This document shows positions 2,173-59,250 of a stretch of DNA of 64,000 nucleotides, in pieces. Origin of the DNA: Chiloscyllium plagiosum (lineage: Eukaryota); assembly GCF_004010195.1 (NCBI RefSeq), contig NC_057713.1, forward strand, positions 41,449,081 through 41,513,080, read 5' to 3'. Made by a program: the position numbers and the translations under genes. Position 1 is the first letter of the stretch; each line of letters begins with the position of its first letter. The notes beneath the pieces were generated by a model. That model ran no database searches. It saw only the letters and a program-made list of their open reading frames with translations, and was not told the origin of the DNA.

Positions 2173-3225
2173 GATCATGAACACTTTCATCTAGAAGGAC
2201 AAGGGCAGCAGATACATGGGAACACCGCGATCTACAAGTTCCCCTCCAAACCCATCCACACTAAGAAATACAGAACTATTTCTTCATTATCATTGGATCA
2301 AAGTTCTGGAATTCCTTCCTAAATAGCATTGTGTGTCTACCTATAGTACATGGTCTGCAGAAATTCAAGAAGACTGCTCATGACACCTTCTGAAGGGCAA
2401 CTAGGGATGGGCAAAAAATGCTGGTCCAGCCAGTGTTGCTCACATTTGACAAGTGAATTAAAAAATTGCTGATTGCACATATAATTGAGAATGTAAGTTG
2501 TTATGAAGGTTCATTTGAATTTGAACAGGCCACGTGAATAGGCGAGAACTTAGGATATAAAATATAATGCGAATGTGTAAGGCAGAGTATTTCTTAAATG
2601 GTAAGAAGGGAGAAGTTGTTGATACTCAAGGAACCTGGGGTGTCATTGTTCATGAGGCACTAATAGCTAGCTTGCCCATGCAACAAACAAATGGGTAAGC
2701 AGATGATGATGGGCCTTCCTTTGAAAAGGATTTGAGTACAAGACATAAAGCTATTTTTCTGTGATTGTAAATCACCTTGCTGAGATTACACCTGGACTGT
2801 TGTGTACAATTTTGGTCTTGCTGCCATTGAGGGAGTGCAACAGATGTTCAGTAGACCAACTACCAGGATAGCAGAATGAGGAAACTTGACCTATTTCTCC
2901 AGATCTTCGGAGAAAATCCTTACAGGACATGATAAGACAGATTAGATAGAATAATTTCTCTGGCTACAAAGTCTGAAATCAGGATTTATGGTTGCATGAT
3001 ATAGGGAAACCCATTAAAATTGAGATGAAGAGGAATTTCTTCATTCAGAGGGTGACAAACATTTATAATTCTCTACCCATAAGGACTATGAATGTGCAAA
3101 TATTGAACAAGTTCAAGACATAAATTGATAGAATTCTGGATAGCAATGCCATCGAAGAATAGGTGGATACTGGTGTAGACATAAATGATTAACCATGGTT
3201 CAGAATGGTGAAGTATGCTTGATGG

Positions 3226-3443
3226 AGAAAGTGAGGTCTGCAGATGCTGGAGATCAGAGCTGGAAATGTGTTGCTGGAAAAGCGCAGCAGGTCAGGCAGC
3301 ATCCAGGGAACAGGAGAATCGACGTTTCGGGCATAAGCCCTTCTTCAGGATTCCTGAAGAAGGGCTTATGCCCGAAACGTCGATTCTCCTGTTCCCTGGA
3401 TGCTGCCTGACCTGCTGCTGCGCTTTTCTAGCAACACATTTCC
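3226..3443. mobile_element. Fold-back PLE pLTR cassette (family A), one hammerhead core on each strand
   Basis: Inverted arms centred near 3351; flanking duplication AAGTATGCTTGATGG at 3211-3225 and 3444-3458. Confidence 0.9.
3354..3381 (+). ncRNA. Minimal hammerhead ribozyme motif (PLE type)
   Basis: CTGAAGA-A-GGGC-TTAT-GCCC-GAAA-CGTC; mirror copy on the minus strand at 3321-3348. Confidence 0.75.
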
Positions 3444-4304
3444 AAGTATGCTTGATGGGTTGATTGGCTGACTCGTGCTCCAAATTCTCATGTTTCTAGC
3501 TCATGATTTCTCAGCAAAAATAAAAACAGCTCCGAAAGTTTTTGTCACATATTCTACAATTTTCAGATCCTGGCTGCTCCAACTGGAACTGAAAGGTCGT
3601 ACAAACAACCCATCCACATAAGTCGGAATAAATGTCTTCTGTAAAACTTAATTATTGGTTTTGTGAAAATTGTTTTGTGTCAAGGAGAGAGAACTTATGA
3701 GACCCAGCTTAACAACAACCTTTTTAATAAAATCAGATTCCACTTATACAGAAAATATTTGTTTCCAGTAAAGAAAATTAATTGTCAGCACGAATGACTG
3801 CCATTTACTAACATTCGACTTTTAGTTGTAGCGATGTTGGGGAATCACATGCAAAAGGAGCCTTTTCCTCCCACGCTTCCTGATATAATTGTGACTCTGT
3901 CAGTGCAGGATCATTGGTGCCCTGATTTTAAAACTTTTTTCAATCTATTTTGGCAGTAGGTTTTAAATTAGTGAGCTGATCAGCTACACAATGGGCTCCC
4001 GCTTCCTTTCAATCTACCTTTTCCTGCTGAGTTTCTTTTATTACAGTGTTTGTCTTCTGCCATTGAGCAACAACCATTCAGGAAGAGCTGTTGTATAACA
4101 GCTTCCTACCTACTGCTATTGATTAACAATGAAGTATAATTTAACAGGAAAATAAAGTAGCAACAGGATCCCTGACTGAATCTGAGTCATACCAATAAAA
4201 GGTCTTACCAACTTATGGTTATATTTATATTACGGTTATTTCTATCAGTGTTGAATTTACAAGAAATATTTCTACATCATTTGAAAACACAAAGCCCCAG
4301 CTGC

Positions 4305-4410
4305 AATAGAAACAGAAAGTGCTGTAGAAACTCAGCAGGCTTGGCAGCACCTGGAAGAGAGAGTAGGAGCTAATGTTTTGAGTCTGATAGCTCTTCTTTA
4401 AAAGAGCCTT
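4305..4410 (-). mobile_element. Degraded PLE pLTR fragment (family C)
   Basis: AAACAGAAAGTGCTG.AGAAACTCAGCAGG.TTGGCAGCA block, as in the copy at 50.9 kb. Confidence 0.55.
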
Positions 4411-5183
4411 ATGGGGGGGTCAGTCATTGAGTATATTCCAGGCTGAGGTCAACAGATTTCTACAAATTAAATACATTGAATGATATTAGTATAGTGCAAG
4501 AAATGGAGTTGAAGTAGAAACTCATGCACAATCTCATTAAATGGTAAAGAAGTTCTTGGTGCTGGATGGCCTACTCCTGCTCCTATGTTCTTAAATAAAT
4601 TGGTGCTGAGGGGTTCCAATGTTATTGAAAGTTATATTACCTTTTCTGTTTGTTTGTTATTGGAACTTTGAAGACGAATGTTGACATTGGGTGACTTTCT
4701 GAAGACATATTGTCAATACTTCACCAAAAATCTATTAATATCTAGTTTGACTTCAGATATTTCACGGATAAAGATTATATACCTGTAGTACCAACCTCAG
4801 AGAGAGAATGTTTCATCACTGGCATCTTGCGAGGGGTTATAGAATCAATTACACAGTGGAAAATAGGCCCTTTGATTCATCAAGTCTGCACTGACAAAAA
4901 ATACATAAAACCTACACTCGTCCCACTTTCCAGTAGTTTCCACACAGTCTTGAATGTATGATATCTCAAGTGCTCATCCAAGTTCATTTTAAAGGTTGTG
5001 AGGTTTTCTGGCTCGACTACTCTCCCAGGCAGTGGATTTCAGACTCTCACCATCCTCTGGGTCAAAAGGTTTTCCTCAAATCCCCACTAAAACTCCTGCC
5101 TTTCACCTTAAAATTATAGCCCCCTTGTATTGACACTTCAACTAAGAGGAAAAGCTGCTTTCCATCCACTCTATCCATGCCTT

Positions 5184-6124
5184 GAGGCATGGTACATTGG
5201 CGAGACCGAGCAGAAGCTATGGCAACGGATGAATGGAAACCGCATAAGAATCACCAGGCAGGAGTGCTCCCTCCCAGTCGGGGAACTCTTCAACAGTCCA
5301 GGACATTCGGCCTCGGTCCTTTGGGTGACCATCCTCCAAGGCAGACTTCAAGACAGACAACAATGAAAAGTAGCTGAGCAGAGGCTGATAGCCAAGTTCA
5401 TTACCCATGAGGATGGCCTCAACCGGGACCTTAGGTTCATGTCACACTACAGGTGATCCCACTACACTGTATATATACACATACACACACACTCCTCCAG
5501 ACTCACACAGCCCCTCTCTCATACACAAGCTCTCTCTCATATGCTCACACACACACATATATACATTCTTTCACAGACAAACACTTGCTACCCACACCCA
5601 CATGCATACACTCACTCGGTCTTCCCTGCACACACACACATAAAAGTTTGAGGTGAATTTGTACTTGCAGAATTACATTTTATTTTGCTTAAAAACTGCA
5701 TACATCCATGCAAGATTCTGTTACTCCCACTTTAGAAATAGAATCAGTCTCACCTAACACTGGGACACAGACTTTAACTTCACACCTTCAATGCACTTTC
5801 TGAGCTGAGAAGACACCTATTGTTAAAAGCTATCTTGAGAGTGCAACTTTAAAAAAGTTCTGAGATTTATATATGAAGGAAGTGAAACTAACATGGTCAT
5901 TCTAAAAGATGAAAGACTTAAGCTAAATTTGTTTAATATTGCATTCCATGACACTGCAATTCTGTTGCTATAAAGTCTTGTGTCTTATGATTCTGCTCCA
6001 CAACCAACTGATGAAGAAGCAACGCTTCAAAAGCTAGTGCTTCCAAATAAACCTTGGGCTATAACCTGGTGTTGTGTGATTTTTAAACTTTGTCCTTCCC
6101 AGTTCAACACCAGCAACTCCAAAT
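5184..6124 (+). mobile_element. 5'-truncated Penelope-like element (family B): GIY-YIG remnant, (CA)-rich tract, pLTR
   Basis: EAWYIGETEQKLWQRMNG...EQRLIAKF..HEDGLNRD reading; terminal CTGATGAAGAAGC...AAAGCTAGTGCTTCCAAATAAACC...CAACACCAGCAACTCCAAATC. Confidence 0.9.
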
Positions 6125-6577
6125 CTCAAAATCTTATACACCTCACCCTTCTCTGCTCTAAAGAAAACAACCTGAGCCCATCCACCCTCTCTTCATTGAT
6201 AAACTGCTCTATCCCAGAAAATATCCTCGTGAATCACGTTTATACACCCCCCAGTGCACTCACATCCTTCGTATAGTGATGTGACTGAAAAAAACACACA
6301 GTACTCCAGCTGTGGTCTAATTAAAATTTCATACAGCTCCAAGATGATCTCCTTGCTCATACGACTTATGCCACAACTGGTAAAGGCAATTGTCCCATTT
6401 GTCTTTTTAAATAACCTATTGATCTGCCGTGCTGCCTTTAGGAATCTGTGTATAAGCATTCCAAGATCCCTCTGTTCCTCTGAGCTTCCTATTTGTCCTG
6501 TCATTTACTGTGTAATCCCTTGTCTTGTTACTTCTTTCAAAGTGCATCATCTTACATGTATCAGCGTTAATTTTTTT

Positions 6578-6889: not shown

Positions 6890-8366
6890 ACTAAGTTAAG
6901 TTCCATTCTGCCCATCTGAGCAATCCATCTATGTTGTCCTATAACCAAAGAACTTCTTCCCCATTGTCCAGCGCCTGGCCAATCTTTGTATCATCCACAA
7001 ATTTACCATTGTTTCCATATTTTCTTCTCTATCGTCTATATATATCACAACAAATTGGGACCCAGTACTGATCCCTGTGATACGTCACTGGACACCAGCC
7101 TCCAGTCACTCAAACAGCCTTCTACCACTACCCTCTATTGCCTGCCACTCAGCTATAACTGGATACAATTGCCAAGTTACCTTCGACCACATGTGCTTTT
7201 ACCTTCTTATCAGCCTCCCATGTGAAAACTTGTCAAATGCTTTGCTAACATCTATATAAACTACATCAACTGCACTACCCACATCTACCCACCTAATCAC
7301 CTCCTCTAAAAATTTAATCAAATTTATTTGGCATGACCTGCCTCTGACGAAGCCATCCTGACTGTCTCTGATCAAAGCTTGCTTCTCTGAATGGATAATA
7401 ATTCTCTCCTTCAGAATTTTCTCTAGTAGTTTCCTTTGGTGTGAAGGAGAAATGAAAGAACATGATTTCAGATTTAAAAAAAGGGACAGGAAGAATGAAG
7501 TGGATCTCATCTGCTGCTCCAGATACAGGAACTCCTCCACTTGGACTAGTGCCATACCTGAGAATCTGTGCTCCCACTGTGGTCCCTGGGCCTTTCTGAA
7601 ACCTAACCCTATGTGTTAAACAACCCACTCCACACCTTCAGCGCAAGTGGGTGAGTAAAACCTACATAGACAGTTCCAGGAAAATTGTATCTAATCAGCA
7701 CTTGAGAGCTGAACCTACTACTAATGATTTCAGCACTTACAGGCATGTTTAAAACCTGCTAATCATTTCCCACCTCCCAAATTATAAGGTAGATCCACAT
7801 TTTCAACTGTGAATTTCTTATTAGTAAAGTGTTCAGTTAAAGCATGTTTTCATGTGTGGCTAAAATAACCTTTAACCTTACATAAATCCATATAGAAATC
7901 AGGTAAAAATCTCTCTGCAAACAGTGTAAAACAGTGCTGTCCCTCCTTTAATTACTTAAAGAATGGGGTGTGAGATCAGATACCAGGATTGTGGCTAATG
8001 ATTAATCCACACCCATTCAAAGTCATGCAGGCTGTAAGCAAATGTTGTGCTTCTAATTATAATAGTGAGTTGCAGAACCCGCTTTTGAGTGACTGCAAGC
8101 CTCAGCAGACACCTGAGGTTAGACTTAATCTGCTTAAATCAAAACTGCAGAGAGGTAGCAGGAGTTGAATTGGTTACAGAAGAATTAAGACTCAGGTCCT
8201 CCTGATCTCCACCTCAGCTTTGGGTTTGGCACAATAAATAATTCACTTGATTGATTCCCAGGGTGAGAAGGATGTCCTATATTGATAGGCTGAATAAATT
8301 GTGTGCATGATTTTTGGAGTCAGGATGATTTAGAGATGTTTTTGTTAAAATGACAGGACAGATGGA

Positions 8367-8542
8367 GTTAAAAATCACACAACACCAAGCTATAGTCCAA
8401 CGGTTTAATTGGTGGTTGTGGATCAAGGAGCAGCACTCTGAAAGCTAGTGCTTCCAATTAAACCTGTTGGACTATAACCTGATGTTTTGTTATTTTTAAC
8501 TTTAACTTTGTACACCGCAGTCCAACACCAGCATCTCCAAAT
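8367..8542. mobile_element. Fold-back PLE pLTR cassette (family B), ribozyme core decayed
   Basis: Inverted arms GTTAAAAATCACACAACACC / GTTATTTTTAACT; TSD CAGGACAGATGGA at 8354-8366 and 8543-8555. Confidence 0.85.
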
Positions 8543-8786
8543 CAGGACAGATGGATGTAGAGTGATTGTCTTTCTGAAGGTTTGATCATTACTGGCTGGG
8601 ATGAGAAATCGATTCAATTAAAGGATTAAGAATCTTTTGAAATTTCCTGTCCTAGAACTTTTTGGGTACTCTATTGTTGCAAACATTTAAATAGATTGCA
8701 TTTTGGTCTTTCAGAGAATAAAGGGAAACTGAATTAATGTTGAGGCAAAAGATCTATTAAAATTTATATTGAATGGCAGAGCCAAT

Positions 8787-10210: not shown

Positions 10211-10339
10211 ACATGTAGCAAGCTGGAGAAATTTCAGCAGATAAAATCATGGGCTGTGGTCACCTTCGCCACCACTAGCACAGCTCTGAAAATGAGGGCT
10301 GATTACAAACAACGAAAGTTAATGCAAGTAAACAGAAAC

Positions 10340-12621: not shown

Positions 12622-12630
12622 AAAAGGGAG

Positions 12631-12703
12631 TGGTGAATGCGGGCATCAATCCCGTTACCTCTCACATGTAAAGCAAGCACTCTACCATTTGAGCTAATTC
12701 CCC
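12631..12703 (-). pseudogene. tRNA-Ala(AGC)-derived pseudogene; anticodon position now reads TAC
   Basis: GGGGAATTAGCTCAAATGGTAGAGTGCTTGCTTTACATGTGAGAGGTAACGGGATTGATGCCCGCATTCACCA aligns without gaps to the vertebrate tRNA-Ala-AGC sequence I recall (GGGGAATTAGCTCAAATGGTAGAGCGCTCGCTTAGCATGCGAGAGGTAGCGGGATCGATGCCCGCATTCTCCA); TTTT follows 5 nt downstream. Confidence 0.85.
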
Positions 12704-16993: not shown

Positions 16994-17037
16994 TGATTTC
17001 TGTTTCTCTTTTAAGTGATTTCTGTTTCTCTTTTAAG
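16994..17037 (+). repeat. Perfect 22-bp tandem duplication TGATTTCTGTTTCTCTTTTAAG x2
   Basis: Directly visible. Confidence 0.95.
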
Positions 17038-20081: not shown

Positions 20082-21162
20082 TCCTCCTAACCATTTACTT
20101 CATTGTTGCCAGACATCCATCAATCTTGATGTTAAACATACCCAAAGACTAAGCTTCCACAGCTTTCTGCCTTAAACAATTCCAGATATCTCTCTGTAAA
20201 AAATAGTTCACCTACTCTCTGTCCCAAATGACATTCCCTTATTTTTTAAATTTTGCCCGCTGGTTTTAGACTCCTCAACAAGGGGAAACAGCTTACCTGC
20301 ATCTGTCCTGTTTTATTACATTAAGCATTTTGTAAGCTTCAATGAGATCACTGCCCATTCTGTGAAACTCGAGAGAATACATACTCAGATTATCCCATCT
20401 CTCTTCAGAGGCCACTCTGGGGCAAGACTGGCAAACTGTCATTTTACTCCATTGGTGGCAATAATGTCCTTCCTAAGATAAGGATTCAAAACTGCATGGG
20501 ACGCTCTTTACGTGGGGTCTAACCGAACTTCTATACAATTGAAGTAAGACTTCACGACTCCTGTACATATGAACATAACAACTAGGAGCAGGAGTAGGCA
20601 ATTCAGCCATTCCAACCTGCTCAGCCATTCAATGCGATCATAGTTGATCCCATTATGACATCAATTCCACTTTTCTGCCCACTCTCCATAACCCTTTAAC
20701 TTGTTACTAATTAAACATCTGTCTATCTCCTCCTTAAATTTACTGTGTCCCAGCATCCATGAGTTATTTACAAAGATTCATCACCCTTTGAAAGAATTTC
20801 TCCTCATCCCCATCTTAGATCTGCCATTCCTTGTCCTAAAATTATGCTCCTGTCTTTCCAGATTGCCCACCTGAGGAGACATCCTTGCTACATCTACTTT
20901 GCCAATCAAATCTAGCATCTTATGTACTCAATTAGATTACATCTCATTCTTCTAAACTTTAGAGAGTATAGGTCTGACCTGCTCATTGTTTCTTCATTAG
21001 ACAAATCCCTGAAATCAATCTAATGAATCTCCTCTGAATTGCCTTCAATGCAATTACATCCCACCTCAAGAAAGGGGACCAAACTGAATTCAAAACCCCA
21101 GATGCTGTCCCATTAATGCCTTGTGTAGTTGCAGCAATGCTTCCCTGTTTTCGTAATCTATT

Positions 21163-21340
21163 GAGGAGAAAGTGAGGTCTGCAGATGCTGGAGATCAGAG
21201 CTGAAAATGTGTTGCTGGAAAAGCGCAGCAGGTCAGGCAGCATCCAAGGCCTGAAGAAGGGCTTATGCCCGAAACGTCGATTCTCCTGTTCCCTGGATGC
21301 TGCCTGACCTGCTGCGCTTTTTCAGCAACACATTTTCAGC
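21163..21340. mobile_element. Fold-back PLE pLTR cassette (family A); intact hammerhead core on + strand at 21251-21278
   Basis: TSD TTCGTAATCTATT at 21150-21162 and 21341-21353. Confidence 0.9.
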
Positions 21341-21697
21341 TTCGTAATCTATTCCTTTAACAATAAATGCCAAAATTCCATTTGTCTTCCTTACTACCTG
21401 CTGTATCTGGGCACTAATTTTCTGTGATTCATGCATGAGGGCATCCAGATCCCTCTGCACTGAAGTACTTTGACGTTCCTCTCCATTAAGATCATAAGTT
21501 GCCACGTTCATATCTATCTGCCAAATTTTGACCTAGTCACCTAACCTATCCATATTCATTTGTAAATTTCTTATATCTTCATTGTAACTGACTTTCCTGC
21601 ATCATTTAGAGTAATCTGCTCAAAACTACTCCTTTCACTACTCCTTATGCCACCATGGCTAACTAGCTTTTAACCTTCCTGACTATCGTGACATCCT

Positions 21698-21915
21698 GAG
21701 CTGAAAATGTGTTGCTGGAAAAGCGCAGCAGGTCAAGCAGCATCCAAGGAGCAGGAGAATCGACGTTTCGGGCAGGAGCCCTTTTTCAGGAATCATCGAG
21801 GTTTCGGGCATGAGCCCTTCTTTCTCCTGCTCCTTGGATGCTGCCTGACCTGCTGCGCTTTTCCAGCAACACATTTTCAGCTCTGATCTCCAGCATCTGC
21901 AGTCCTCACTTTCTC
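21698..21915. mobile_element. Fold-back PLE pLTR cassette (family A) with internal micro-inversion
   Basis: TSD CTATC(G/A)TGACATCCT at 21683-21697 and 21916-21930. Confidence 0.9.
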
Positions 21916-22861
21916 CTATCATGACATCCTATCAGGGTTTTATGTCTTAACATTAGGGTGATTATGTATTTTATGTGTATTTTGTTGGAGAGTTGACGGG
22001 TGTCATGATCCTTTGCTAAACTTTGCACCATGTATAAATTGTTAGCAGAAGGTTGTAATGCTTGTACACTTTGATGAAAGCTTCCTTGTCCCCTGCCAAC
22101 GCAGTCTAGTTTGATGCCAGCTTGAGCACTGAATCAAGCTTTGTGTAGCCTTGCCAGCCTTTATTTATATTGTTTCCAGCACATGAAAGAATATAGCACT
22201 GATGTTAGCTTATTAAGAATGTAAAACTGAACATTGCTTTAGCTAAAACACCTTTACTGCAGTAAGGTTACCTTATTTAGTAACTCAAGAAAGTCAACTT
22301 AAAGAGAGTTACTCATGACTTCACACCATTACTTGTACCAAAGTATCTGAATTTACTTGAACTTTTGAGTGCCAATGATCTAAGAAATAATTAATGCCAG
22401 GGAGCATACTGTGATAGGAGCTGAGAGAACACCTCTGTTCAGCTCAGATATGCCAGTGGAAAGAATTATATAGGAGAAAAGGTCCACTCTAATTTGTGTA
22501 AGGATTATAAAGGAAACTGGGGGGGGTGCAATTTTTCAGTCCTCCCTTTCTAATTCTCCTGAACATAGTTCACCTGGTAAATATATAATAAAATTTGGAA
22601 TATTTCCCTCAAGTGTTATGTGTGGCTTTGGCATACGCAAAGCAGATGGACATTTTTAATTAGTCAATGATGAACCACAAATTTTTTTCCAGTCTTTATA
22701 GTGAACTGAAACAAAAAACAATTTCACTAACATACATTTGTTAAATCTGACTTCATTTCAAAGATTAAAGAAATTGATTGAAATCACACCACTGAGTTTG
22801 GAGTACACTTTGGTCCACATCCCATGATTATTGTAAATGCACAAAGTCTCAATGGGCTCAA

Positions 22862-28485: not shown

Positions 28486-28489
28486 GGAA

Positions 28490-32537: not shown

Positions 32538-32603
32538 CCTTCCCCAAACCCCTACACACTCATGCAGATACACAGACAAATAAATTGGCAATATGGGTGG
32601 AAT

Positions 32604-32699
32604 CTGAGCTGGAAGTGTGTTGCTGGAAAAGCGCAGCAGGTCAGGCAGCATCTAGGGAACAGGAGAATCGACGTTTCGGGCATAAGCCCTTCTTCAGGA
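32604..32699 (-). mobile_element. Single-arm PLE pLTR (family A, ~96 bp); intact hammerhead core at 32670-32697
   Basis: TSD ATGGGTGGAAT at 32593-32603 and 32700-32710. Confidence 0.88.
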
Positions 32700-33183
32700 A
32701 TGGGTGGAATGAAAAACACTGGGGAAACACAGTTCATTAGCACCAGTCTATAGGGCTTGAGAAACTATCTTTTAGCTGCGAGTGTTATAATCAATACCTT
32801 CTTGAAATCATGTTTTGGCCTTGTCTGTTTTCTGTGGTAGCAAATTCCACAGGCTCACCACTCCCTGGTGAAAGAAATTCTCCTCATCTCAGTCCCAAAT
32901 GGTCTACCTGTATCCTTAGACTGTGACCCCTAGTTCTGGACTCTGCTGTCATCAGGAACATCCTTCCTGCATCTACCCTGTCTAAGCATGTTAGAATATT
33001 CTTGGCTTATATTAGATCTCTCTCTATTCTACTAAAGTCCAGTGACAGTGCAAAGGGAATACTGGAATTTTAAAAATCACATTTATTGAAGCATATTGTG
33101 AGTTGTATCTAATCTTGCTTTCATTGAACAGTGAGGGCTAAAGCAGTCATCATTGAGCAGAACTAGTGGAGAGCTGTTTGACA

Positions 33184-37076: not shown

Positions 37077-38615
37077 TCATAGAATAGAATAAAAAATTAA
37101 TAAGGCAGAAGACACATTTGGCCCACTGAGTCTATGCTGACAAAATCACTCTAAATCGATACTAGTCCCATGTTCCAGCTCTTGGCTGCTCATCCAAGTA
37201 ATTTTTAAATGTTGTGAGGTTTCCTGATTCAACAATCCTGCACTAGTGCATTCCAGATTCCTACCACCCTCTGGGTGAGAAGGGTTTTTCTTAATTCCTG
37301 TCAAAACCTCCTGGCTTTCACTTTTAAATTATTCCCCATTGTTGTTGATCCTTCAACTAAGGGAAGACAGCTGCTTTCTATTGATCCTCTCCATATCCCT
37401 CATAATCGTATTCAACTCAATCAGGTCTTCTCTTAGCCTTCTCTGCGTGAAAGAAAACAATCTGAGTTTATCTAGCCTCCCTTCATAGCTAAACTGCTCC
37501 ATCTTTGACAAAATCATGGTGAATCACCTCTGCAGCTCCTCCAATGCAATCACATCCTTCCGATAGTGTAGCGATCAGACTGAATACACTGTTTCAATTG
37601 TGACCTAAGAAACGTCTTGTAGAGCTCCAACATAATCTCCCTGCCCTTAAAATCTGTCTTACGGCCGATAATGGCAAGTGTCCTAAATTCTTCCTAACTA
37701 TCTGATTCACCTGCGCTGCTGCCTTAAGTGATCTATCATAGCATCCAAGATCCCTCTCTGTCTTGCCATTCGTTGAGTATTCCCTTGTCTTGAAACTTCT
37801 TCAAAGTGCTTCACTTCACACTTGTCAGGGTTGAATTCCATTCACCACTTACCTGTCCGGCTGACTCGCCCATTTATTTCCTCTTGTAGCCTTCTTCCTC
37901 ACTATCAATCTCCCAGCAATTCTTGTGTCACCTAAAACTTACCTATCATCTCTCAAACATTTTCTTCTATATCATTTATTTATATCACAAACAATGCAGG
38001 GCTGATATTAACTGAACACTGCTGTTTTCCAGTACCACAAGGAGCCTTCTATCACTGTCCCCTCTCCCCTACCACTAAACAGATTTTGGATCTAACTTGT
38101 AATGTCATCTTGGATCCCATGTGCTTTAACCGTCTTTACCAATATCTCATCTGGGACCTTGTCAAAGGGCCATACAGAAATCCATATAAGCTACATCAAC
38201 TTCACCTACACATCTGGACACCTCCTTGAAAAACCCAGTTAAATTTATTTGGCATGACAGCTCTCTGCCAAATGTGATGCTGGAAAAACACAGCAGGGCA
38301 GGCAGCATCTGAGGAGCAGGAGAATCGACGTTTCAGGCTTATTCCTGAAGAAGGGCTTATGCCCGAAATGTCGATTCTCCTGCTCCTCGGATGCTGCCTG
38401 GCCTGCTGTGTTTTTCCAGCATCACATTTTTCAACTCCAATTTGTCTCCAGCATCTGCAGTCCTCACTTTCTCCTAGCTCTCTGCCAAAGCCATGCTGAC
38501 TATCCCTGATCAAAATCTTGCCTTTCCAAGTGGAGATTAATTCTCTCCTTCAGAATTTTCTCCCATAATTTCTCTACCACTGGTATGAGCGTGGCTGGTC
38601 AACCTCCCTTCTTGA
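37077..38615 (-). mobile_element. CR1 LINE RT to 3' end (same subfamily as 4838-7440)
   Basis: IRDSQHGF and FDKVP motifs; CATAGAATAGAAT tail. Confidence 0.85.
38273..38475. mobile_element. Fold-back PLE pLTR cassette (family A)
   Basis: TSD AGCTCTCTGCCAAA at 38259-38272 and 38476-38489; + core CTGAAGAAGGGCTTATGCCCGAAATGTC. Confidence 0.9.
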
Positions 38616-40159: not shown

Positions 40160-40950
40160 ATAGTACAATGGCTTTAAGAGGTATATTTTGTCCTTTTCTA
40201 TGATGAAGAAAGGCTGAGATGAATGAACCAAGTAATCTGTTCTAAGCCAATGAAATTAACATCTTGTGAGGCCTTTGGGTTTTTTTTTTAACTTGGAGCA
40301 ATAGAAGCAGCCTGAATGGGTCGGGTCAAACTTCCACTAGAACTAGGATTTTTAGTTGTAGCTTTCAGCTGTTGTTGGAATCTTGAAGCTAGACGTGGAA
40401 GCTCTTATTCCTCTCTCTGTTACAGCTATAATTTGGGGTTATCTTCCTGCTGCTAGAATTCTATGTCAGACAATTTATTTTACTAAATTTTCTTTTACCA
40501 AGGGATGTTATTATATTGGACCTGTTAATTGATAGTAGTTAATATTTTGTTATGATGTGGAGGTGCTGGTGTTGTACTGGGGTGGACAAAGTTAAAAATC
40601 ACACAACACCTGGTTATAGTCCACAGGTTTTGGAAGGTTCCACTAGTTACCTGATCAAGAAGCAGTGCTCTGAAAGCTAGTACTTACAAATAAACCTGTT
40701 GGACTATAACCTGGTGTTGCATTATTTTGTTAAGCATTTTGATAGAGTTACAGTTACGCCAATTATTTTCTTTTATTTTGTTTTGTCTGTATTTTAACTG
40801 TAAAGATAAAGTACGTTTTGCTTAAAGTCAAGTAGTTTGACCAATTAAATTGCATCTGGAATGCAATACCTTACACTTAACTTTGTAATAAGAAAGGCTC
40901 TAGGCTATCTTCTAAATATATTTTGAGGGGCTTTTGTCTGATCCATTGTA
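40160..40950 (+). mobile_element. Probable degraded LTR
   Basis: LTR-like composition with an ATAAA signal near 40806; termini decayed. Confidence 0.3.
40553..40722. mobile_element. Fold-back PLE pLTR cassette (family B)
   Basis: Inverted arms; TATTTTGTTA duplicated on both sides; core CTGATCAAGAAGCAGTGCTCTGAAAGCTA decayed. Confidence 0.8.
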
Positions 40951-42539: not shown

Positions 42540-42862
42540 AATAATGATCATGACATCAGAAAAACCCATTTGGTTCCCGAATGCCATTTAGGGAAGGAAA
42601 CTGCTATCCTTATCTGGTCTGGTCTGGTCTACATGTGACTTCAGACCAACAGCAATTATTGACTTTTAATTATCATCTGGATAATTCGGGATGGGCAATA
42701 CATGTTGGCCTAGCCAGCAATGCCTATATCCCTGAGGCGGGAAGTGAACCCGGGTCTCTGGCGCTGTGAGGCAATAGTGCTAACCACTGTGCCACCGTGC
42801 CGCCCACTGGATAATTCGGGATGGGCAATACATGTTGGCCTAGCCAGCAATGCCTATATCCC
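42540..42862 (+). mobile_element. SINE with LINE-B tail, containing an HE1 head fragment (42733-42805, minus) between identical 56-bp repeats
   Basis: 42677-42732 is identical to 42807-42862. Confidence 0.8.
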
Positions 42863-42865
42863 ATA

Positions 42866-44035
42866 ATTTGGAAGTGCTGGTGCTAGACTGGGGTGTACAA
42901 AGTTAAAAATCACACAACACCAGATTATAGTCCAACAGGTTTATTTGGAAGTACTAGCTTTTAGAGTGTTGCGCCTTCATCAGGTGGTTGTGGAGTATAA
43001 GATTGTAAGACACAGAATTTATAACAAAGCTTTACAGTGTGATTTAACTGAAATTATATATTGAAAAAATGTTCCCTCCCAGTCGGAGAACACTTCAGCG
43101 GTCTGGGACATTCGACCTCGCACCTTCGGGTGACCATCCTCCAAGGCTGACTTTGGGACAGGCAACAACGAAAAGTGGCCAAGCAGAGGCTGATAACCAA
43201 GTTCGGTATCCATGGGGATGGCCTCAACCGGGACCTTGAGTTTATGTCACACTACAGGGGACCCCACTGCACTACACACACACATAGACTGACGCACACT
43301 CACAGACAGACAGACACAGACACAGATACACACACACACAGACACTCCTACAAACACATACTCCTACAGCCACATACACAGTCCTACAAGCACATACACA
43401 CTCCTACAGACCCATACACTCACACAGACCCTCTCTCATATGGAAGCTCTCACACACACATACTCCCACACTCACATGCACACACACCCTCTCACAGACT
43501 TATACCCCTTTACACCCACACTCACACACATACACACACTCTCTCACAGACACTTATAACATCCCCCCTCCATATACACACCCACATGCACACACACACA
43601 CACATAGGTTTGTGGGGTGAATTTGTACTTGCAAAATTACACTTTATTTTGCTCAAGAACTGCAAGAATCCATGTAAGATTTTGTAAATCTGTTTTTTAG
43701 ATTAGAATCAGTCTGAATATTGTGGCATTTACAGTCTCACACAGGGCACCTCACACCTTAAATGCATTATCTGGGCCGACATGTGTAATTCTGCAATTTA
43801 CATATGAAAGAACTGAAACCAAAATACCCATTCTAAAAGATGAGAGATTTAACAAACAATCCAGGTGTTTTTTGATATATAATTTCAATTACATCACACT
43901 GTAAACTTTTACTATAACTTCTGTGTTTTAGGATTCTATACTCCACAACCACCTGATGAAGGAGCAGTGCTCTGAAAGATAGTGCTTCCAAATAAACCTG
44001 TTGGACTATAACCTGGTGTTGTATGATTTTTAACC
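42866..44035 (+). mobile_element. Penelope-like element (family B): inverted pLTR (42866-43070), GIY-YIG remnant, (CA)-rich tract, pLTR
   Basis: SLPVGEHFSG.GHS...QQRKVAKQRLITKFGIHGDGLNRDLEFMSHY; ATATCCCAT repeated at both flanks. Confidence 0.9.
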
Positions 44036-44619
44036 TCATATCCCATGAATGAGCAAACAAAATAGAAACTGAAAGGAACAGTTTACATTTAGATGCACAA
44101 TGGCTCAGATTTGTAGATCAACGCAATTGATTGTGCATTTTGCATGCTGTTTACTCCTGATGTGTCTGTGCAGATATAAACCGCAATGTGTAATTAGGAG
44201 CAAAATTACTCTACCTAGAGTGAGCCAAATTTTAGACAAAGTAAAGGTGTGACTGTGCAATTTAGTGCCACTGGAATCTAGGATCATTTGATTCCAACTT
44301 TTAAAAAGTTGGTTTAGTCCCTGAACAGGAGGGAGCCAACCAGGCAACATTGTTGGTGATAATGGCTGGGATGTTATCAGCTGGGGGATGAGGTACTGGG
44401 AAGAATGTTAGCTGGGGAGCCACTTTGGGACAGTCCCTAATGCTGGCAAGATGGTGGAGACAACAGATTAGGTAGTGTTTGGGTTCCTGGCCCATACACT
44501 CCCTTTCAGCTGACCAGCCACATTCTTTTTAAAATTATTTTTATTATTTCTTAATATTACTTTTTATTTCATCTTTTGTATCAAATTTATTTTTCCTTCT
44601 GTCTGTGGCTGAGGTATGG

Positions 44620-44880: not shown

Positions 44881-45451
44881 CATTCTTGGAGGTTTCTGGA
44901 GGCTCCCCCTGTACTATCTTCAGTAGTTGGACAGGCCCCAGTCTTTGGCAGTGCCAGTTCATGAAACCAGAGGCCGTGGAATGAGCAAAAAATAATATTT
45001 GTTTTAACTTTTTTTTGAAATGTATAATTTATGTAATTAAATGGCTCTATTATCGTGGTGACTTATACACGTTTTACTGTATTTTCACAAATATAATAAC
45101 AACGAATTTCTATCTATATCCTTAGTGTTGGCCATCTCTTGTGGAGATGTTTTTAAAGATGGAAAACAGTCATTTCTTTGGTGGGGGCAACATTGTCGAC
45201 GGCTGATTTACCTTCCTTAATTAGCCACGACTCCTGACCACCATTCATTAACTAGAGAGTAACAACAACATTCCTTTGTAAGCCTCTGGTTGCACAGAGA
45301 TGCCATCCACTTTACAGTATCAGGATTTTGATGTTGCTGACAACATTTTACCCATTGATTTTATCTTTTCTGTGTCTTGAAAAGGATGCCACAGCATTAC
45401 ATATCTCAACTGGTTTGCAATTGTCTCATAATTGGTGCAGCAATTTCTGTT

Positions 45452-45545
45452 GAAACTTTATTGCTGGAACAGCACAGCAGGTCAGGCAGCATCCAGGGAA
45501 CAGGAGATTCGACGTTTCGGGCACAGGCCCTTCTTCAGGAATCCA
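45452..45545 (-). mobile_element. Single-arm PLE pLTR (family A variant, ~94 bp)
   Basis: TSD CAGCAATTTCTGTT at 45438-45451 and 45546-45559. Confidence 0.88.
45505..45544 (-). ncRNA. Best-preserved hammerhead ribozyme motif (type I topology)
   Basis: GGATTC-CTGAAGA-A-GGGC-CTGT-GCCC-GAAA-CGTC-GAATCT: stem I GGATTC/GAATCT, 4-bp stem II, palindromic ACGT, GUC site. Confidence 0.8.
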
Positions 45546-46379
45546 CAGCAATTTCTGTTCCTAGTTATACAACGTTGTTTGTATCTACAGAGACCACACA
45601 TCCCCTAAAACTCACCACCTCACCAGGAATAATAGGCATGTGAGTATGTGTCACACAGTTAATTATGTTGTCCTGTTGGGGATTACATGAGTATGACTCA
45701 TCATACATGCTAAATCTCAGTTAATTCAATTTCTCAATTTGTTCAGTTTCTCTACAAGGATAACACATATAATCTTATAACCAATGTGAAGAGGAGTCAT
45801 GCAGGACTCAAAACACTAGCTCTGTTTCTCTTTCTAGATATGCTGCCAGAGCTACTGAGTTTCTACAGCGCTCTCTGTTTTCATTTAATCTGTCCAGCAT
45901 CCACAGTACTTTGCTTTTATTTTACAGGATGAATTGTGTTTTTGCGCACGATATATTGAAGAGTGGAAAGAAAGATGGGACTGCTGAAGGCTGCTAGGTT
46001 GCAAATGTGTGTGTAAAGAAATCCTGTGGAGACTGCATTTGGAGATGAGGGAAAATTGTTAGTAGGATCTCAGAAGAAGTATCATTATATTGATTTGTAC
46101 AGTGTAACTATCATCAACCCTTGGTGCCATTGCAAATGGTTGATATAAGTTATTTTTTTGACATAAAGTGATTATATAACACAAAATAGCTCAAAGTATA
46201 ACAAGAGCAAAGATGGAAGTCTACTTTTTTGGAAGGTTGAGAAGTTACTGTCTGTCCAACATCAAAGTATTAATTAGGCTTTATGTTTAAAATGGGATCC
46301 GCCTTCTGTTAAAATAACAGACGGAACTCTCCCAAACAGCTTGTTGAGCTTCACATGATATATGATAGTCAATCAATAA

Positions 46380-47197: not shown

Positions 47198-48412
47198 ATA
47201 GAGTCATAGAGATGTACAGCATGGAAACAGACCCTTCGGTCCAACCCATCCATGCCAACCAGATATCCCAACCCAATCTAGTCCCACCTGCCTGCACCCG
47301 GCCCATATCCCTCCAAACCCTTCCTATTCATATACCCATCCAGATGCCTTTTAAATGTTGCAATTGTACCAGACTCCACCACTTCCTCTGGTAGCTCATT
47401 CCACACACGTACCACCCTCTGTGTGAAAAAGTTGCCCCGTAAGTCTCTTTTATATCTTTCCCTTCTCACCCTAAACCCATGCCCTCTAGTTCTGGACCCC
47501 CTGACCCCAAGGAAAAGACTTTGCCTATTTACCCTATCCATGCCCCTTATAATTTTGTAAACCTCTATAAGGTCACCCCCCAGCCTCCGATGCTCCAGGG
47601 AAAACAGCCCCAGCCTGGTCAGCTTCTCCCTAGAGCTCAAATGCTCCAACCCTAGCAACATCCTTGTAAATCTTTTCTAAACCCTTTCACGTTTCACAGC
47701 ATCTTTCCGATTGGAAGGAGACCAGAATTGTACACAATATTTCAACAGTGGTCTAACCAATGTCCTCTACAGCCACAACATGACCTCCCAATTCCTGTAC
47801 TCAATACTCTGACCAATAAAGGAAAACATACCAAACACCTTCTTCACTATCCTATCTACCTGCAGCTCCACTTTCAAGGAGCTATGAACCTGCATTCCAA
47901 GGTTCAGCAACACTCCCTAGGACCTTCCCATTAAGTGTATAAGTCCTGCTAAGATTTGCTTTCCCTTGCATTTATCGGAATTAAACTCCATCTGCCACTT
48001 CTCAGCCCATTGGCCCATCTGGTCCAGATCCTGTTGTAATCTGAGGTAACCCTCTTCGCTGTCCACTACCCCTCCAATTTTGGTGTCATCTGCAAACTTA
48101 CTAACAATACCTCTTATGCTCGCATCCAAATCATTTATGTAAATGACAAAAGTAGAGGATCCAGCACCGATCCTTGTGGCACTCCATTGGTCACAAGCTT
48201 CCAGTCTGAAAAACAACCCTTCACTACCACCCTCTGTCTTCTAGTTCTGAATCCAAATGGCTAGTTCTCCCTGTATTTCGTGAGATCTAACCTTGCTAAT
48301 CAGTCTCCCATGGGGAAACTTGTTGAATGCTTTACTGAAGTCCATATAGATCACATCTACCACTCTTCCCTCATCAATCCTCTTTGTTACTTACTCAAAC
48401 AACTCAATCAAG
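47198..48412 (-). mobile_element. CR1/HER1 LINE RT to 3' end, relatively young
   Basis: YINDLD...SKFADDTKIGG, GDLIEVYKIIRG, NFFTQRVVRVWNELP; CATAGAGTCATAGAG tail; inserted in an L2-like remnant. Confidence 0.93.
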
Positions 48413-49911: not shown

Positions 49912-52165
49912 TAAAAGATATAGTACTGTTCGGAGAATTCAGCCCCTCAAGCTTGTTTCTGCCTTTTAATATGAACATGGCTGATTTCATCTCAACATCA
50001 ATTTGACTTTCCTGTCTGTTCTCAATATCAGTTCAACCCATTACTGATTAAAAGTCTGTCTACCACTTTCTAAATTTACTCAATGTCCTGACATTCACCA
50101 CACTCAGCCTAATAAATTTCACAGATTAATGGCCCTTTAAAAGAAGTAATTTCTTCCTACCTCCGTTTTAAATCTGCTTTCCCTTATCCTAAAACTATGA
50201 CCTCTCATTCTCAATTGCCCCACAAGAGGGAACATTCTGTCTGCATCTACTTTGTCAATCCACTGTAGCAACTTACGTACCTCAATTTGATCTCCTCTCA
50301 TTGTTCCAAACTCTAGAGAGTACAGGTCTGAACTACTCAATCTCTCTTTGTAAGACAAGCCCTTTCCCTCTGAAATCAATCTAGTGAATGTCCTCTGAAT
50401 TGCCTCCATGCAGAACAGCACTCCAGAAATTGGACGCAATATAGGTGTCATCTCATTAATACCTTATACAGCTGCAGCAATGCTTCACTACTTTAAATAT
50501 GTGCATATTAAATGTAAATTCCATTTCCCTTTCTTATTACTTGCGGTACCTGCATATTAGTTTTCTGCGATACAAGCATGAGGGCACCCACATCCCTCTG
50601 CACTGAAAGACTCTGAACTTTCTGTCCATTTAGACCATATGTTACTTTTCTATTTTTCCAAGCAAAATGAATAAGCTCACACTTACACACATTAAACTGC
50701 ATCTGCCAAATTTTGGCCCATTCACCATACCTATCTTCATCCATTTATAAATTTCTTATTTCTGCATTGCAATTTACTTTCTCATTTATTTTACAGTCAT
50801 CTGCAAATTTGACTATAGTATTTCCTATCCCTATATTCATGCCATTACCATTGATCATAAATAGTTTGGTCCTCGAGGAGCAAACCTTATGAATGAATGA
50901 AACAAAACCAGAAATTGCTGGAAAATCTCAGGAGGTCTGGTAGTATCTGTGGAGAGAAATCAGAGTTATTATTTTGGATTCGGTGACCCTTCCTTCAGAA
51001 CAGTTCTGAAGAAGGGTCACGGAACCCAAAATGTTAACTCTGATTTGCCGTACAGATGCTGCCAGACCTGCTGAACTTTGTCAGCAATTTCTGTTTTCGG
51101 TTCTGATTTCCAGCAACCACGATTTGTTTTTTTTTTATCTTGCGAATGAATGAATGATTTTATTGTTACATGTATTCTACAGTGAAAATTACAGTAAAAT
51201 ACAATGAAATCCTTCTACTGTCACCATGATCTGGAACCATTTTGAATTCTGCTGCTGCCAAAACTGGACCCGACCGATATCAAATTCGCTAATCCTCAGG
51301 CGCCAACTTTCATCACTGGTTCGACGCTGACGTTGCCTCCGTTGACGTGACAGCCAATACTGGGTCCCGTACTCACCCCTCCACCAACATCCTCAATGCC
51401 GCCGCCAGAACCCACTCCAGGCTCACCGATCACTGCCATAATCTGTGGTTATAATTGTGGTGCCCCACTAATTACATATTGCCAACCTGAAGAAGACTCA
51501 TTTATCCTGACTCTCTCCTTTCTGCTGGTTAGCCAATCCTCTATCCATGCTAAATTACCTCTAACCTCATGCAATTTCACACTTCTTTTCACAACTTACT
51601 CTCCTACCTATCCATGTGTCATCAACAAACTTCGCAGCCTTATCTTTGATCCCTTCATGAAGATGTTGATTTGGATTGTAAAATGTTGAGGCCACAACAC
51701 ATTGTGGTACACATGTCATTACACCTTGCCAACTTGAAAATAACTAATTTATTCGCTGAAGATGGCCCATTTATTTTCTGAAAATGACTGATTTAGGTCA
51801 ACTTTCTGTTTTCCCATTAACTAGCCAATCCAGGCTAATATTATATCACCAAGTGCATGAACTTTTACTTTATCACAGCTAGCTTTGATGTGGCACATAT
51901 CAAATGACTTTCTCCAAATTTAAGCACAGAATATCCACTAATTCCCCTTTATCTGGGGTGCATGTCATTTCTTCAAGAAGTCCAATAACTTGGTTGAATA
52001 TAGTTTCCCTTTGACGAAAACTGCCTGATTAACTTTTTTTATGTAGCTTGTTGTAACATTTTTAATAATGGATTTAAACATCTTCACTTTGACAGATTTT
52101 AGACTAACTGGCCTGTAGTCTACTGCTTTTGGTTTTCTTCTCTTTTTGAATAAACATTGCCATTC
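49912..52165 (-). mobile_element. Degraded CR1 pieces with nested inserts
   Basis: IQRTFTRLI, WAKIWQMQFNVCKCELIHF, DYRPVSLKSV motifs. Confidence 0.8.
50902..51138. mobile_element. Fold-back PLE pLTR cassette (family C)
   Basis: Arms meet at CTTCAGAAC-A-GTTCTGAAG (~51002); flanks CTTATGAATGAATGAA / CTTGCGAATGAATGAA. Confidence 0.85.
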
Positions 52166-56029: not shown

Positions 56030-56300
56030 GAAACAATGAGACAAGAGTGCAAATCAGGGGAATCCATATTGGGATTTTCGACGAGGTTAAGACAACTGGC
56101 AGATACATGTAACTATGGTTTAATCCTCAATGAAGTGCTGAGAGACCATTTGGTATGTGAGATTAAAGATTTATCCGTGCAAAAGCACCTGCTAGTTGAA
56201 GCCCAATTGAACTTCAAACAGGCATTACAACTGGGCTTTGTCATTGGAAAATGCAGCAAGTGGAGCATATGAGCTACAGGGTAGGCTAACGGAAGTTCAT
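56030..56300 (+). mobile_element. Ty3/Gypsy gag remnant
   Basis: GESILGFSTRLRQLADTCNYG..LNEVLRDHLVCEIKD.SVQKHLL.E..LNFKQAL matches the Gypsy gag GES..F...LR.LA..C.FG...LRDRLV.GI.D pattern. Confidence 0.8.
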
Positions 56301-56304
56301 ATCC

Positions 56305-56930
56305 TTGTCAAAAGAGAAAATGCTGGAAAATCTCAGCAGGTCTGGCAGCATCTGTAAGGAGAGAAAGGAGCTGACGTTTTAAGTCTAACTGACCCTTTGT
56401 CAAAGTAAAAAAAAAGGAGAAATAGGGAGGTATTTATGCAAGGCTGAGAGAAGGTGAGTCATGACTCCAGAAGCAAAGATAGCAATAAAGAGGTGATAAT
56501 GACAGTGCATAGAGAGATTATAGGGAGATTAGGAGCTGTGAATGATCATGGCTGAAGCCGGTGCTATGTGACAAAATATGGGAGGGATGGGGGGATGGGT
56601 GCAGCAGAGGCAAAATGAAAAACAGGGGAGAAGGGTAGCAAGGGGGAAGAGGAGAGGAAAAAGGTGATGAGAGAGTGGGTAAGAGAGAGATAGAGAGACA
56701 ATCAAGAAATAAGAGGTACAGAACAGTGAAAAAATATTTTTAAAGGGGTAAATAAAATAAATGAAATAAAATTGTGGAGCTCAATGAAAACAGAGGGGTC
56801 GAGATGGGATAATCATCTGAAGTTTTTGAATGCAATGTTGAGACCAGCAGGCTGTAACGTGCCTAGTCGGAAGATGAGATGCTGTTCCTCCAGTTTGCAT
56901 TGAGCTTCACTGGAACATTGCACTGGAACA
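56305..56930 (-). mobile_element. PLE 3' fragment (family C related)
   Basis: Minus strand CSSEAQCKLEEQHLIFRLGTLQPAGLNIAFKNFR*, then a pyrimidine-rich spacer and pLTR. Confidence 0.85.
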
Positions 56931-57829
56931 CTAGCTTGCCTCATGCACCCAGAATGTCTCAGAAGAAATTCATTCTCTTCTTCAGGTAGCAAGTTGTTGA
57001 TGTAGTAACATCTTCTGTGACCATTTTAGATTCCAAGGTATCTTCAATGCTTCATGGAGAGAGAGAACCCACAGGTTCCAGAGCTGTCGGAAAGCCAGGC
57101 ATGTTTTGCTCCCACACTGTTTGCAAATATCTGAATTTTATATGTCAATGGACCTGACCTCATGTCGATCATGCCCCTTACCCATGAAGGGCCATTCCTG
57201 TGGTTCCTACACCAAACTTCATCCCCTGAAGTAAACTATATCTCTCGCTTAGCAGAGTCTTGTGTCCAGCATTGGCATTCCTGATGCTGTTTCACAGGCA
57301 AAGTATTATAACCCCAATGTACATTTTAATAGCCAGCTAAAGCTATTATTGATTACCATATTGTAGGATTAATTCATACCACAATGATTTCCTTGTTAGT
57401 TATGTTGGAGTCAGCTTTTCATCTGAAAATACAAATAAACCTTTTCAGCCTGCAGCACTTTGAACAGCTACAGACACCTTGCTGACCCTTCAAAATAATT
57501 TGCCCAATCCTTTCAAAGCTCTTTGCTGCAGGCAATCCTGGACTACTCCCAAGTGAATCAGATTTAAAGTTGATTTACTATATCATAACAAAGCACTTAA
57601 GTTTCACTGAATGTGGCATTCTCTGTGCCTGCTCCTTATTTGCAATTTCTGTCCTTAACTGCATGCAAGCTAAAATTACATTTATTTATAAAGATCAAAA
57701 GACGAATTTAAAAAGGCCAAAGTGCTGCTGTAACTCTGCATGTTAGTGTGAGCTATAATAAATTTTATCGTTCCTAGTATTTAGTTCAAGATATACGGGG
57801 AGGAAGGGGGAAGGGTCAGGGTAGTGAAA

Positions 57830-59250
57830 TATAACCATATTCGATGGAAAAAGGATAAAATTAGAGACTGTTTATGCAAAAGTACATTAAAGGTAGATAT
57901 GATGATGGCATAAATAGAAATTGACATGAGATAATGGCCATTACATTGATATGATTGCAAGGTTAATAAGGCTAGGAACTGAATATTCAGTAATATTTGA
58001 CATTTTGGAACAACAGGCAGAAAGGTAAATAAGATACAATAGCTCTTTAATGTACAATGAGTTCAGTGCAGTAATGTGAAAGGCTCTTGATTCAGAAAAT
58101 TAAGATATGGTGTCCATTTGGGAGAAGGTCAGCAAAGCAAGGGAAAGAAGTCACCATTCGGAGTTGCCTATGAATCCCTGAATAGTAGCTACCTGCAGGA
58201 TGAAGCTTAAATCAAGAAATAATTCGGGCATGTCAGAAAGATGTTAGAATAATTATTGCTACTTCAATCTTCATACTTCATCTCATAAATTCTTTGCAAT
58301 TCACATAGTTGGATTGTGTCAGCAATGGCATGCTGATATATTCCATTCTCAGGGTAAGGAAATTTATCCCAAGCCTATCACAGTTGTAACAGGAACTGAA
58401 ACTGCACTGGCTGCATTGTTTCACACTGCATGCTAGCAATTTAGCCAATTGATATAACCAGACCCAAATCTGGTAAAAGAATGTATTTAGAACGGCTTCT
58501 TAGACTGATGCATTGTATAACCAAACAAGTAACAGGTTATTTTAAGTCCAATCATGTGTACTGAGACAGGATTAATTAATGATCTTACAGTAAAGAATCT
58601 CTTGGAAGAATAATTATACCAGGTTGAAATTTCACATTCAGTTTGATAGTGAGTAACCTGGATCAAACACTAGTTCTTACATTTAAATAAAGGCAAATGC
58701 AATGGTTGGATTGAAAACTAGATTTAAAAAGGATAAAATGGTGGATAAGCAGTGTTAGATATTTAAGGAGGTACTTCATATGTTTCCGCTCAGATATATT
58801 TCATTGAGAAATAAGAACTTATGAGAATGATAAACTATATATGATGAACAAAAGAAATTAAGAATGAGATGAAATTGAAAGAGAAGTCATACAATGTTGT
58901 GAAGATTAGTCATGATATAGAGATGCCGGTGTTGGACTGGGGTGTGCAAAGCTAAAAATCAAACAACATCAGGTTATAGTCCAACAGATTTAATTGGAAG
59001 CACACTAGCTTTTGGAGCACTGCTCCTTCATCAGGTGGTTGTAGCTATAACCATCTGATGAAGGAGCGTCGCTCCGAAAGCTAGTGCTTCCAATTAAACC
59101 TGTTGGACTATAACCTGGTGTTGTGGGATTTTTAACTGCGAAGATTAGTGGTATGGCAAAAGATTGGGAAATTTTAGAAACCAGTGAAGGATGAGGAAAA
59201 ATTGAAAACAAAGAAAGCAAATAGACTGTCAGAGTGGACTTGTAGGAAGG
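57830..59250 (+). mobile_element. Very degraded CR1 endonuclease/linker region
   Basis: Remnants resembling NA.SI...DI.AIT..WL and GV.Y.P motifs; many stops. Confidence 0.5.
58911..59136. mobile_element. Fold-back PLE pLTR cassette (family B); intact + core at 59055-59083
   Basis: CTGATGA-A-GGAGC-GTC-GCTCC-GAAA-GCTA; TSD TG(T/C)GAAGATTAGT at 58898-58910 and 59137-59149. Confidence 0.9.

Follow-up and report, generated by a model that had tools for sequence, protein, structure and literature searches.

Here we describe a group of short palindromic inserts in a 64,000-nucleotide stretch of the genome of the shark Chiloscyllium plagiosum (NC_057713.1, positions 41,449,081 to 41,513,080; the whole stretch is called the window below). 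The inserts fall into three families, A, B, and C, and appear to be built from the hammerhead ribozyme-bearing ends (pseudo-long terminal repeats, or pLTRs) of Penelope-like elements (PLEs). Our analysis suggests, with a probability of roughly 0.7, that these palindromes are extremely 5′-truncated insertions of hammerhead-bearing PLE ends, likely made singly, by nicking of and priming on both strands of the target. Direct support within the window comes from the target duplications, from two classes of arm 3′ end that occur as one of each in 9/9 inverted inserts, from the uniqueness of the junctions, and from the kinship of families A and B to copies that carry remains of an open reading frame (ORF).

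Eight palindromic cassettes, each bracketed by one target duplication

A preliminary description, made from the sequence of the window alone, had reported eight palindromic inserts, and all eight are present as inverted pairs, with lengths of 170 to 242 bp (n = 8, measured between the duplications). An inverted-repeat scan of the window returned 16 pairs, 13 of which lie within or between these cassettes. The cassettes are as follows.

3226-3443, family A, 218 bp; duplication 15/15 (3211-3225 and 3444-3458); tailed arm on the minus strand, short arm on the plus strand; symmetric centre at 3351.
8367-8542, family B, 176 bp (8354 to 8555 with duplication, 13/13); short arm minus, tailed arm plus; three-piece junction, left arm without the hammerhead core.
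21163-21340, family A, 178 bp (21150 to 21353 with duplication, 13/13); tailed arm from +40, short arm from -1; arms not nested.
21698-21915, family A, 218 bp (21683 to 21930 with duplication, 14/15, one mismatch); additional inverted hammerhead-core piece at 21795-21822 (three-piece junction).
38273-38475, family A, 203 bp (38259 to 38489 with duplication, 14/14); older subfamily, with variants common to both arms.
40553-40722, family B, 170 bp (40543 to 40732 with duplication, 10/10); tailed arm from about +24, short arm from -2; not nested.
50902-51143, family C, 242 bp (50891 to 51154 with duplication, 11 bp in an ATGA repeat); symmetric centre; decayed core.
58911-59136, family B, 226 bp (58898 to 59149 with duplication, 12/13, one mismatch); both arms from -10.

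Duplications of about 10 to 16 bp had been proposed for every insert, and we find 10 to 15 bp in all eight. In seven the edge duplications carry at most one mismatch, and in the corresponding null none of 1,500 random position pairs scored at least 10 and 0.2% reached a score of 9, with a maximum length of 22 in the null and 30 for the real cassettes. The evidence for family C is weaker: its cassette at 50902 gave no duplication score at the first boundaries, and the 11- to 12-nt repeat recovered in a wider scan, which had no matching null, lies inside an ATGA microsatellite. The duplications are not AT enriched (63% AT, compared with 60% for the window). A single duplication brackets both arms in 8/8 cassettes and no inner duplication is seen, in agreement with the earlier proposal that each palindrome was inserted as one unit. 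Between 21150 and 21930, two young family A cassettes lie in opposite orientation 340 bp apart, each with its own duplication.

Families A and B are related to Penelope-like elements

The ORF remains in the window are endonuclease-end fragments only, and their kinship was assessed through longer relatives. For the family B fragment, 22 longer protein matches were found among 54 candidates, most of them named from sharks and several being host gene models into which the repeat has been incorporated, and the best match had 78% identity (Chiloscyllium punctatum). One Heptranchias relative of this family (P0010) has an RVT_1 domain above the cut-off, a DKG motif, a CX4CX2C linker, and a VVY...YIG end. 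The family A fragment gave 51 representative matches in a full scan, unlike a word-indexed database search, which found no longer family A relatives. Among 12 family A relatives scanned, GIY-YIG was detected in 6 (1 above the curated cut-off), 2 of which also had RVT_1. A search for solved structures matching a family B relative returned none. Because relatives of the ORF fragments carry reverse transcriptase (RVT_1) and GIY-YIG-type endonuclease ends, families A and B can be assigned to PLE ends on sequence grounds, in keeping with the PLE origin proposed earlier. A CX2-5CxxC-type cysteine linker is present in relatives P0010, P0005, and P0043; both families are probably Neptune-like, the linker being known from these relatives and the window fragments beginning downstream of it. 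Family C resembles family A downstream of the hammerhead, and this likeness suggests that it too derives from PLEs.

Several host gene models (P0003, P0011, P0015, P0017, and P0035) contain PLE endonuclease-end sequence, which probably reflects chimeric annotation or the exonisation of copies. In families A and C, a pyrimidine tract and CAG followed by ATG lie about 45 nt 3′ of the core (2118-2135 and 50942-50960). This arrangement resembles a splice acceptor ahead of an ORF start and is lost in the young family A copies.

Arm ends fall into two classes and junctions are unique

Arm end positions are counted from the C of the hammerhead CUGA core. The 3′ ends of family A arms are either short (+81 to +93) or long (+122 to +126), those of family B are likewise short (+71 to +81) or long (+117 to +121), and the two arms of the family C cassette end at +94 and +137. 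A fixed asymmetry had been claimed for families A and B; we find an offset between tailed and untailed arms of 32 to 48 nt, and family C is asymmetric as well. The tail is present at one end only in 9/9 inverted inserts (the eight cassettes and the insertion at 42865 described below), each of which has one long and one short end (P = 0.002 under an independent 50:50 draw). The arm asymmetry is the PLE tail.

The arms had also been said to meet at or near the hammerhead core, which describes some of the junctions. Three of the eight (3226, 50902, and 58911) are symmetric, with self-complementary centres, and that of 3226 is a pentamer with the same letters as the 5′ strand of helix I, a possible annealing point. 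In three others one arm begins farther in, at +14 (38273), +24 (40553), or +40 (21163), and the remaining two (8367 and 21698) are three-piece junctions. In three of the nine inverted inserts (21163, 40553, and 42865) it is the tailed arm that has lost more of its 5′ part, so that neither arm contains the other. The four family A cassettes have four different centres, and no junction 24-mer of the eight recurs elsewhere in the window at up to three mismatches. In families A and B the tail can pair with an upstream segment in a 9-bp stem, but 40 and 55 of 500 shuffles did as well, and the folding of single arms was no better than that of shuffles (6/6 arms, z from -1.0 to +0.5).

An ORF-bearing insertion has the layout of the palindromes

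Profile searches of the window yielded seven family A and five family B insertions, making 13 scored insertions with the family C cassette. Those that the preliminary description had missed are the following.

42865-44037, family B, 1173 bp (42856 to 44046 with duplication); long insertion with a 9-bp exact duplication core.
5178-6125, plus strand, family B direct copy; endonuclease-end ORF fragment (5178-5456), 3′ untranslated region (UTR), hammerhead, tailed end; no duplication found.
1738-2165, plus strand, family A direct copy; endonuclease-end ORF fragment (1738-1896), 3′ UTR, hammerhead at 2086, short end; no convincing duplication.
32604-32699, minus strand, family A single arm, 96 bp (32593 to 32710 with an 11-bp duplication); 5′ end at -2, short 3′ end.
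45452-45545, minus strand, family A single arm, 94 bp (45438 to 45559 with a 14-bp duplication); 5′ end at -5, short 3′ end.

The 1173-bp insertion consists, in order, of an inverted tailed arm (42866-43068, minus strand), a 5′-truncated ORF end (43070-43258, plus strand, one stop), a 3′ UTR, and an untailed direct end, which is the layout of the palindromic cassettes. Because this ORF-bearing insertion has an identical layout, the cassettes are placed in a PLE insertion series, of which they are the shortest members. Overall, target duplications of 9 to 15 bp are present in 11/13 insertions, the two long direct copies having none that is convincing; an adjacent head-to-head inverted 5′-truncated copy is present in 9/13, and no head-to-tail tandem units were seen among the copies found in the window.

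Eight single family C-like copies (4310, 10346, 12804, 18993, 33741, 34580, 45787, and 56310) were left out of the count of 5′ ends. These are old and mixed, and some may extend upstream; of six scanned, five had no duplication and in the sixth the duplication overlaps the core. The copy at 56310-56500, which may represent a fourth family extending upstream, has a core that reads as the U3-A8 hammerhead variant described in PMC4209133. Two repeats adjoin or overlap the insertions listed above: a tandem duplication of 374 bp (1064-1811, 97.9% identity), the second unit of which contains the start of the family A ORF fragment, and a 56-bp perfect direct repeat (42677-42862) around a 75-bp piece of an abundant short interspersed element-like repeat, which adjoins the 1173-bp PLE insertion and exceeds the usual length of a target duplication.

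5′ ends pile up at the upstream edge of the hammerhead

Seventeen arms span the hammerhead, 9 of which keep the full core pattern with a helix II of 4 to 5 bp; the other 8, including both family C arms, are decayed. Helix I is fully paired in the copy at 45452, owing to a change located 3′ of the cut. As far as sequence can tell, the shark hammerheads fit the minimal PLE hammerhead described in PMC4209133. (This and the other studies are cited here from excerpts of their text.)

The furthest-upstream end lies between -12 and -1 in 9 of the 12 family A and B insertions (the -12 end of 8367 was read by eye from its three-piece junction) and at -3 in the family C cassette; the other three run on to about -348, -830, and -883. 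Under a constant-hazard model, a crude null applied to few events, the probability that 10 of 13 insertions would end at the hammerhead edge is 3e-9, a figure to be read with the caveat that 8 of the 13 had been picked as short inserts in the first place; among the other five, the ends of two lie at -2 and -5 and those of three lie farther upstream.

The preliminary description had envisaged ribozyme-bounded RNAs, which as products of self-cleavage we discard. The predicted cut lies at +27/+28 and only 2 of 21 arm starts (+24 and +31) fall within 4 nt of it, most ends being about 30 nt upstream, so that the templates are not simply cleaved RNAs. The excerpted text of PMC11167929, on an anole PLE, likewise reports that cleavage is unnecessary and that no RNA ends were found at the hammerhead cut. 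The pile-up can be read in two ways: the RNA may start at this point, or copying may be blocked by the folded core. The legend to Fig. S2C of PMC11167929 states that the hammerhead core must unfold for copying to pass. In the Drosophila Penelope element, transcription starts 46 bp ahead of a 75-bp intron whose end abuts helix I, and a start directly at the hammerhead is therefore not the rule. Family B has a TATA-like stretch about 80 nt 5′ of its core, a greater distance than a start at -10 would suggest. A literature search found no report of a 5′-end peak at the hammerhead of PLEs in the text available, and Repbase or Dfam entries, subscription papers, or supplements may hold one.

Proposed mechanism and alternatives

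In the mechanism that we propose, the element's enzyme would make staggered nicks 10 to 15 bp apart in the two target strands, and each nick would prime one cDNA, of which one would begin at the far (tail) site on the RNA and the other at the near site. Both cDNAs would usually end at or just past the hammerhead, at a block to copying or at the 5′ end of the RNA, and their ends would be joined head to head, sometimes via a short self-complementary stretch, and then filled in. Extension of one nick only would give a single arm with a duplication. The cDNA stop at the hammerhead, the head-to-head joining, and the fill-in are steps that we infer. Work on the anole PLE (PMC11167929) places two internal start sites at the boundaries of the tail, shows that both strands of the target are nicked and extended, and predicts that the enzyme is a dimer. 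The two classes of arm end fit the two priming sites shown in vitro in that study, in support of two priming events.

Earlier, the inserts had been suggested to be a stereotyped two-template product. Two priming events at insertion agree with our data; two templates do not follow from them, and the arms of family A cassettes share variants. Arms differ by 1 to 23% within cassettes. In family A the figure is 1.9% within a cassette, compared with 8.4% between copies (CpG sites excluded), and subfamily variants are common to both arms, save one site at 21163. Such sharing fits the double copying of a single RNA as well as the use of two RNAs from the same active subfamily, and we lean towards one RNA. 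Between the arms of 58911-59136 there is a 2-nt indel, and the loop of helix II is not the same; this cassette would have had two templates if these differences are subfamily variants. Taking this further, it is possible, if doubtful, that a single RNA is read two times by a PLE dimer, which would begin at two sites about 35 nt apart and place the copies on opposite target strands, and that the template is usually either a specialised RNA of about 130 nt starting at the upstream edge of the hammerhead or an mRNA 5′ end giving a strong-stop-like product. If so, the stubs would preserve, in large numbers, the outcome of the step, so far unsolved, by which inverted pLTRs arise, and would amount to a short interspersed element-like output of PLEs in which an uncut ribozyme sets the element's 5′ boundary.

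Several observations weigh against priming on both target strands of PLE-end templates. Our data come from one window and 13 insertions, a Pfam scan of the three window ORF fragments gave no match, and none of the family C copies in the window carries an ORF. Family B arms show no extra closeness within a cassette (14.3%, compared with 13.1% between copies), so the shared-template signal is confined to family A, where the arms of 21163 differ at one variable site 2 nt from the junction. The excerpted text of PMC11167929 does not show the complete inverted product in vitro, and the three symmetric fold-back junctions (3/8) are equally explained by a self-primed hairpin.

Such a hairpin is one alternative. 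An antisense RNA, as proposed as a template for rotifer PLEs, or a first cDNA would prime itself at a short palindrome near the hammerhead, the hairpin would be integrated, and the endonuclease would trim the tail of one arm. PMC3846280 argues for self-priming from palindromes at inverted junctions and PMC8557442 attributes the tail to resolution by the endonuclease, and the three symmetric, self-complementary centres and the variants common to both family A arms would be expected of this route as well. However, the non-nested arms of three of the nine inverted inserts could not arise from a single cDNA folding back on itself without later trimming, the reverse-transcription start sites of the anole element by themselves match both tail boundaries (PMC11167929), and the duplicated single-arm inserts share the same 5′ and 3′ ends without any hairpin. 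We therefore consider this route unlikely.

The alternative raised in the preliminary description, a non-autonomous hairpin retroelement whose whole palindrome is transcribed and reinserted by PLE enzymes, would account for the narrow sizes, the fixed ends, the density (8 in 64 kb), and the duplications around whole units. The lack of any recurrent junction in the window argues against a self-copying hairpin, as do the differing centres of the four family A cassettes and the identical ends of the 1173-bp ORF-bearing copy, and we regard it as very improbable. Miniature inverted-repeat transposable elements are defined by matching terminal inverted repeats and a duplication of fixed length; here the ends are offset by 32 to 48 nt and the duplication length varies. 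That one insertion homed into an earlier one, or that the DNA was rearranged later, could be imagined from the three-piece junctions of 8367 and 21698 and from the ability of the anole enzyme to nick its own pLTR (PMC11167929); with one duplication around both arms in every cassette, none between them, and arms that agree in subfamily in family A, this is extremely unlikely. To an assembly or library fold-back artefact we give next to no credence, since the arms differ by 1 to 23%, their ends are unequal, and host duplications stand on both sides.

Additional observations

An Rfam scan gave nine matches, none to a hammerhead family and all except a tRNA-like one below the gathering score; matches on the hairpins, mostly to microRNA models, were rejected as chance matches to long stems. 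The tRNA-like sequence (12631-12703, minus strand; Rfam 39.1 bits, above the gathering score, with no ARAGORN call) is likely a pseudogene. Exact-pattern scans for further copies in viral, metagenome, and prokaryotic collections gave no matches. The region is present in four DNA-type sequencing runs (71 to 76% of sampled words; 31 to 33% for a second organism), and no RNA run was listed. Repeated open frames at 28583-29212, 47278-47676, and 7199-7615 (minus strand) are presumably like the reverse-transcriptase ends of long interspersed elements (LINEs).

Comparison with known systems

In LINE-1 twin priming, both target strands prime on the element RNA, leaving an inverted 5′ piece inside one duplication. 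The LINE-1 pieces cover different parts of the RNA, whereas the shark arms overlap almost fully and have two fixed start sites.

The minimal type I hammerheads of Cervera and De la Pena (2014, PMC4209133) resemble those of the shark in their CUGANGA/GAAA core, an extra base ahead of helix II, a helix I of 4 to 5 bp, a minimal helix III, and a predominance of truncated, scattered copies. Opposite-strand hammerhead pairs 100 to 700 bp apart were noted there in Schistosoma; the excerpted text contains no analysis of their duplications, tails, or junctions and no mention of sharks. Non-LTR retrozymes (bioRxiv 10.64898/2026.07.22.740005) are likewise short, non-coding, hammerhead bearing, and PLE derived, but they are head-to-tail tandem units, whereas the shark inserts are head-to-head pairs or single arms that start upstream of the cut.

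Poseidon of Anolis carolinensis, studied in vitro by Frangieh et al. (2024, PMC11167929), has two start sites about 34 nt apart that bound the tail and a hammerhead that precedes the ends by about 85 to 120 nt, and both target strands are nicked and extended, all as in our proposal. Relatives of the shark families differ in carrying the cysteine linker of Neptune and Nematis, which is absent in Poseidon, and the shark duplications differ in their lack of AT enrichment. The excerpted text is silent on inverted products and genomic 5′ ends.

The closest parallels are the endonuclease-bearing PLE units. Rotifer units (Arkhipova et al. 2013, PMC3846280) have an inverted pLTR, a 31-bp tail on one inverted pLTR, duplications of 8 to 10 bp, and palindromes at the junctions, and the legend to Fig. 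2 of Craig et al. (2021, PMC8557442) describes an inverted 5′-truncated copy and a tail of 30 to 40 bp, often at one end only. The shark units share with these the adjacent head-to-head inverted pLTR, the one-sided tail, the duplication around the whole unit, and the junction palindromes. They differ in that most lack a body and consist of two arms of about 50 to 140 nt, in duplications of 9 to 15 bp, compared with the 8 to 10 bp published, and in 5′ ends that pile up at the upstream edge of the hammerhead, a feature not met in the excerpted text of either study.

The preliminary description knew of no account of such a dense, multi-family system in sharks. The design is in print (PMC3846280, PMC8557442, and PMC11167929); no shark-specific description was found, and our literature search, in the text available, met neither body-less inverted PLE stubs in sharks nor twin priming for PLEs, which Repbase or Dfam entries, subscription papers, or supplements may hold. 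PMC8557442 states that the way in which the inverted repeats and one-sided tails of PLEs arise is unresolved. Stubs that comprise little beyond two arms within clean duplications display both priming sites and both stop points of each event, and could address whether one RNA or two are used, whether two nicks or self-priming are involved, and whether the hammerhead marks the RNA start or a block to copying. The cassettes are new examples of a published PLE insertion design and ordinary as an element class; what merits testing across the genome is the strict pairing of long with short ends, together with the 5′ pile-up.

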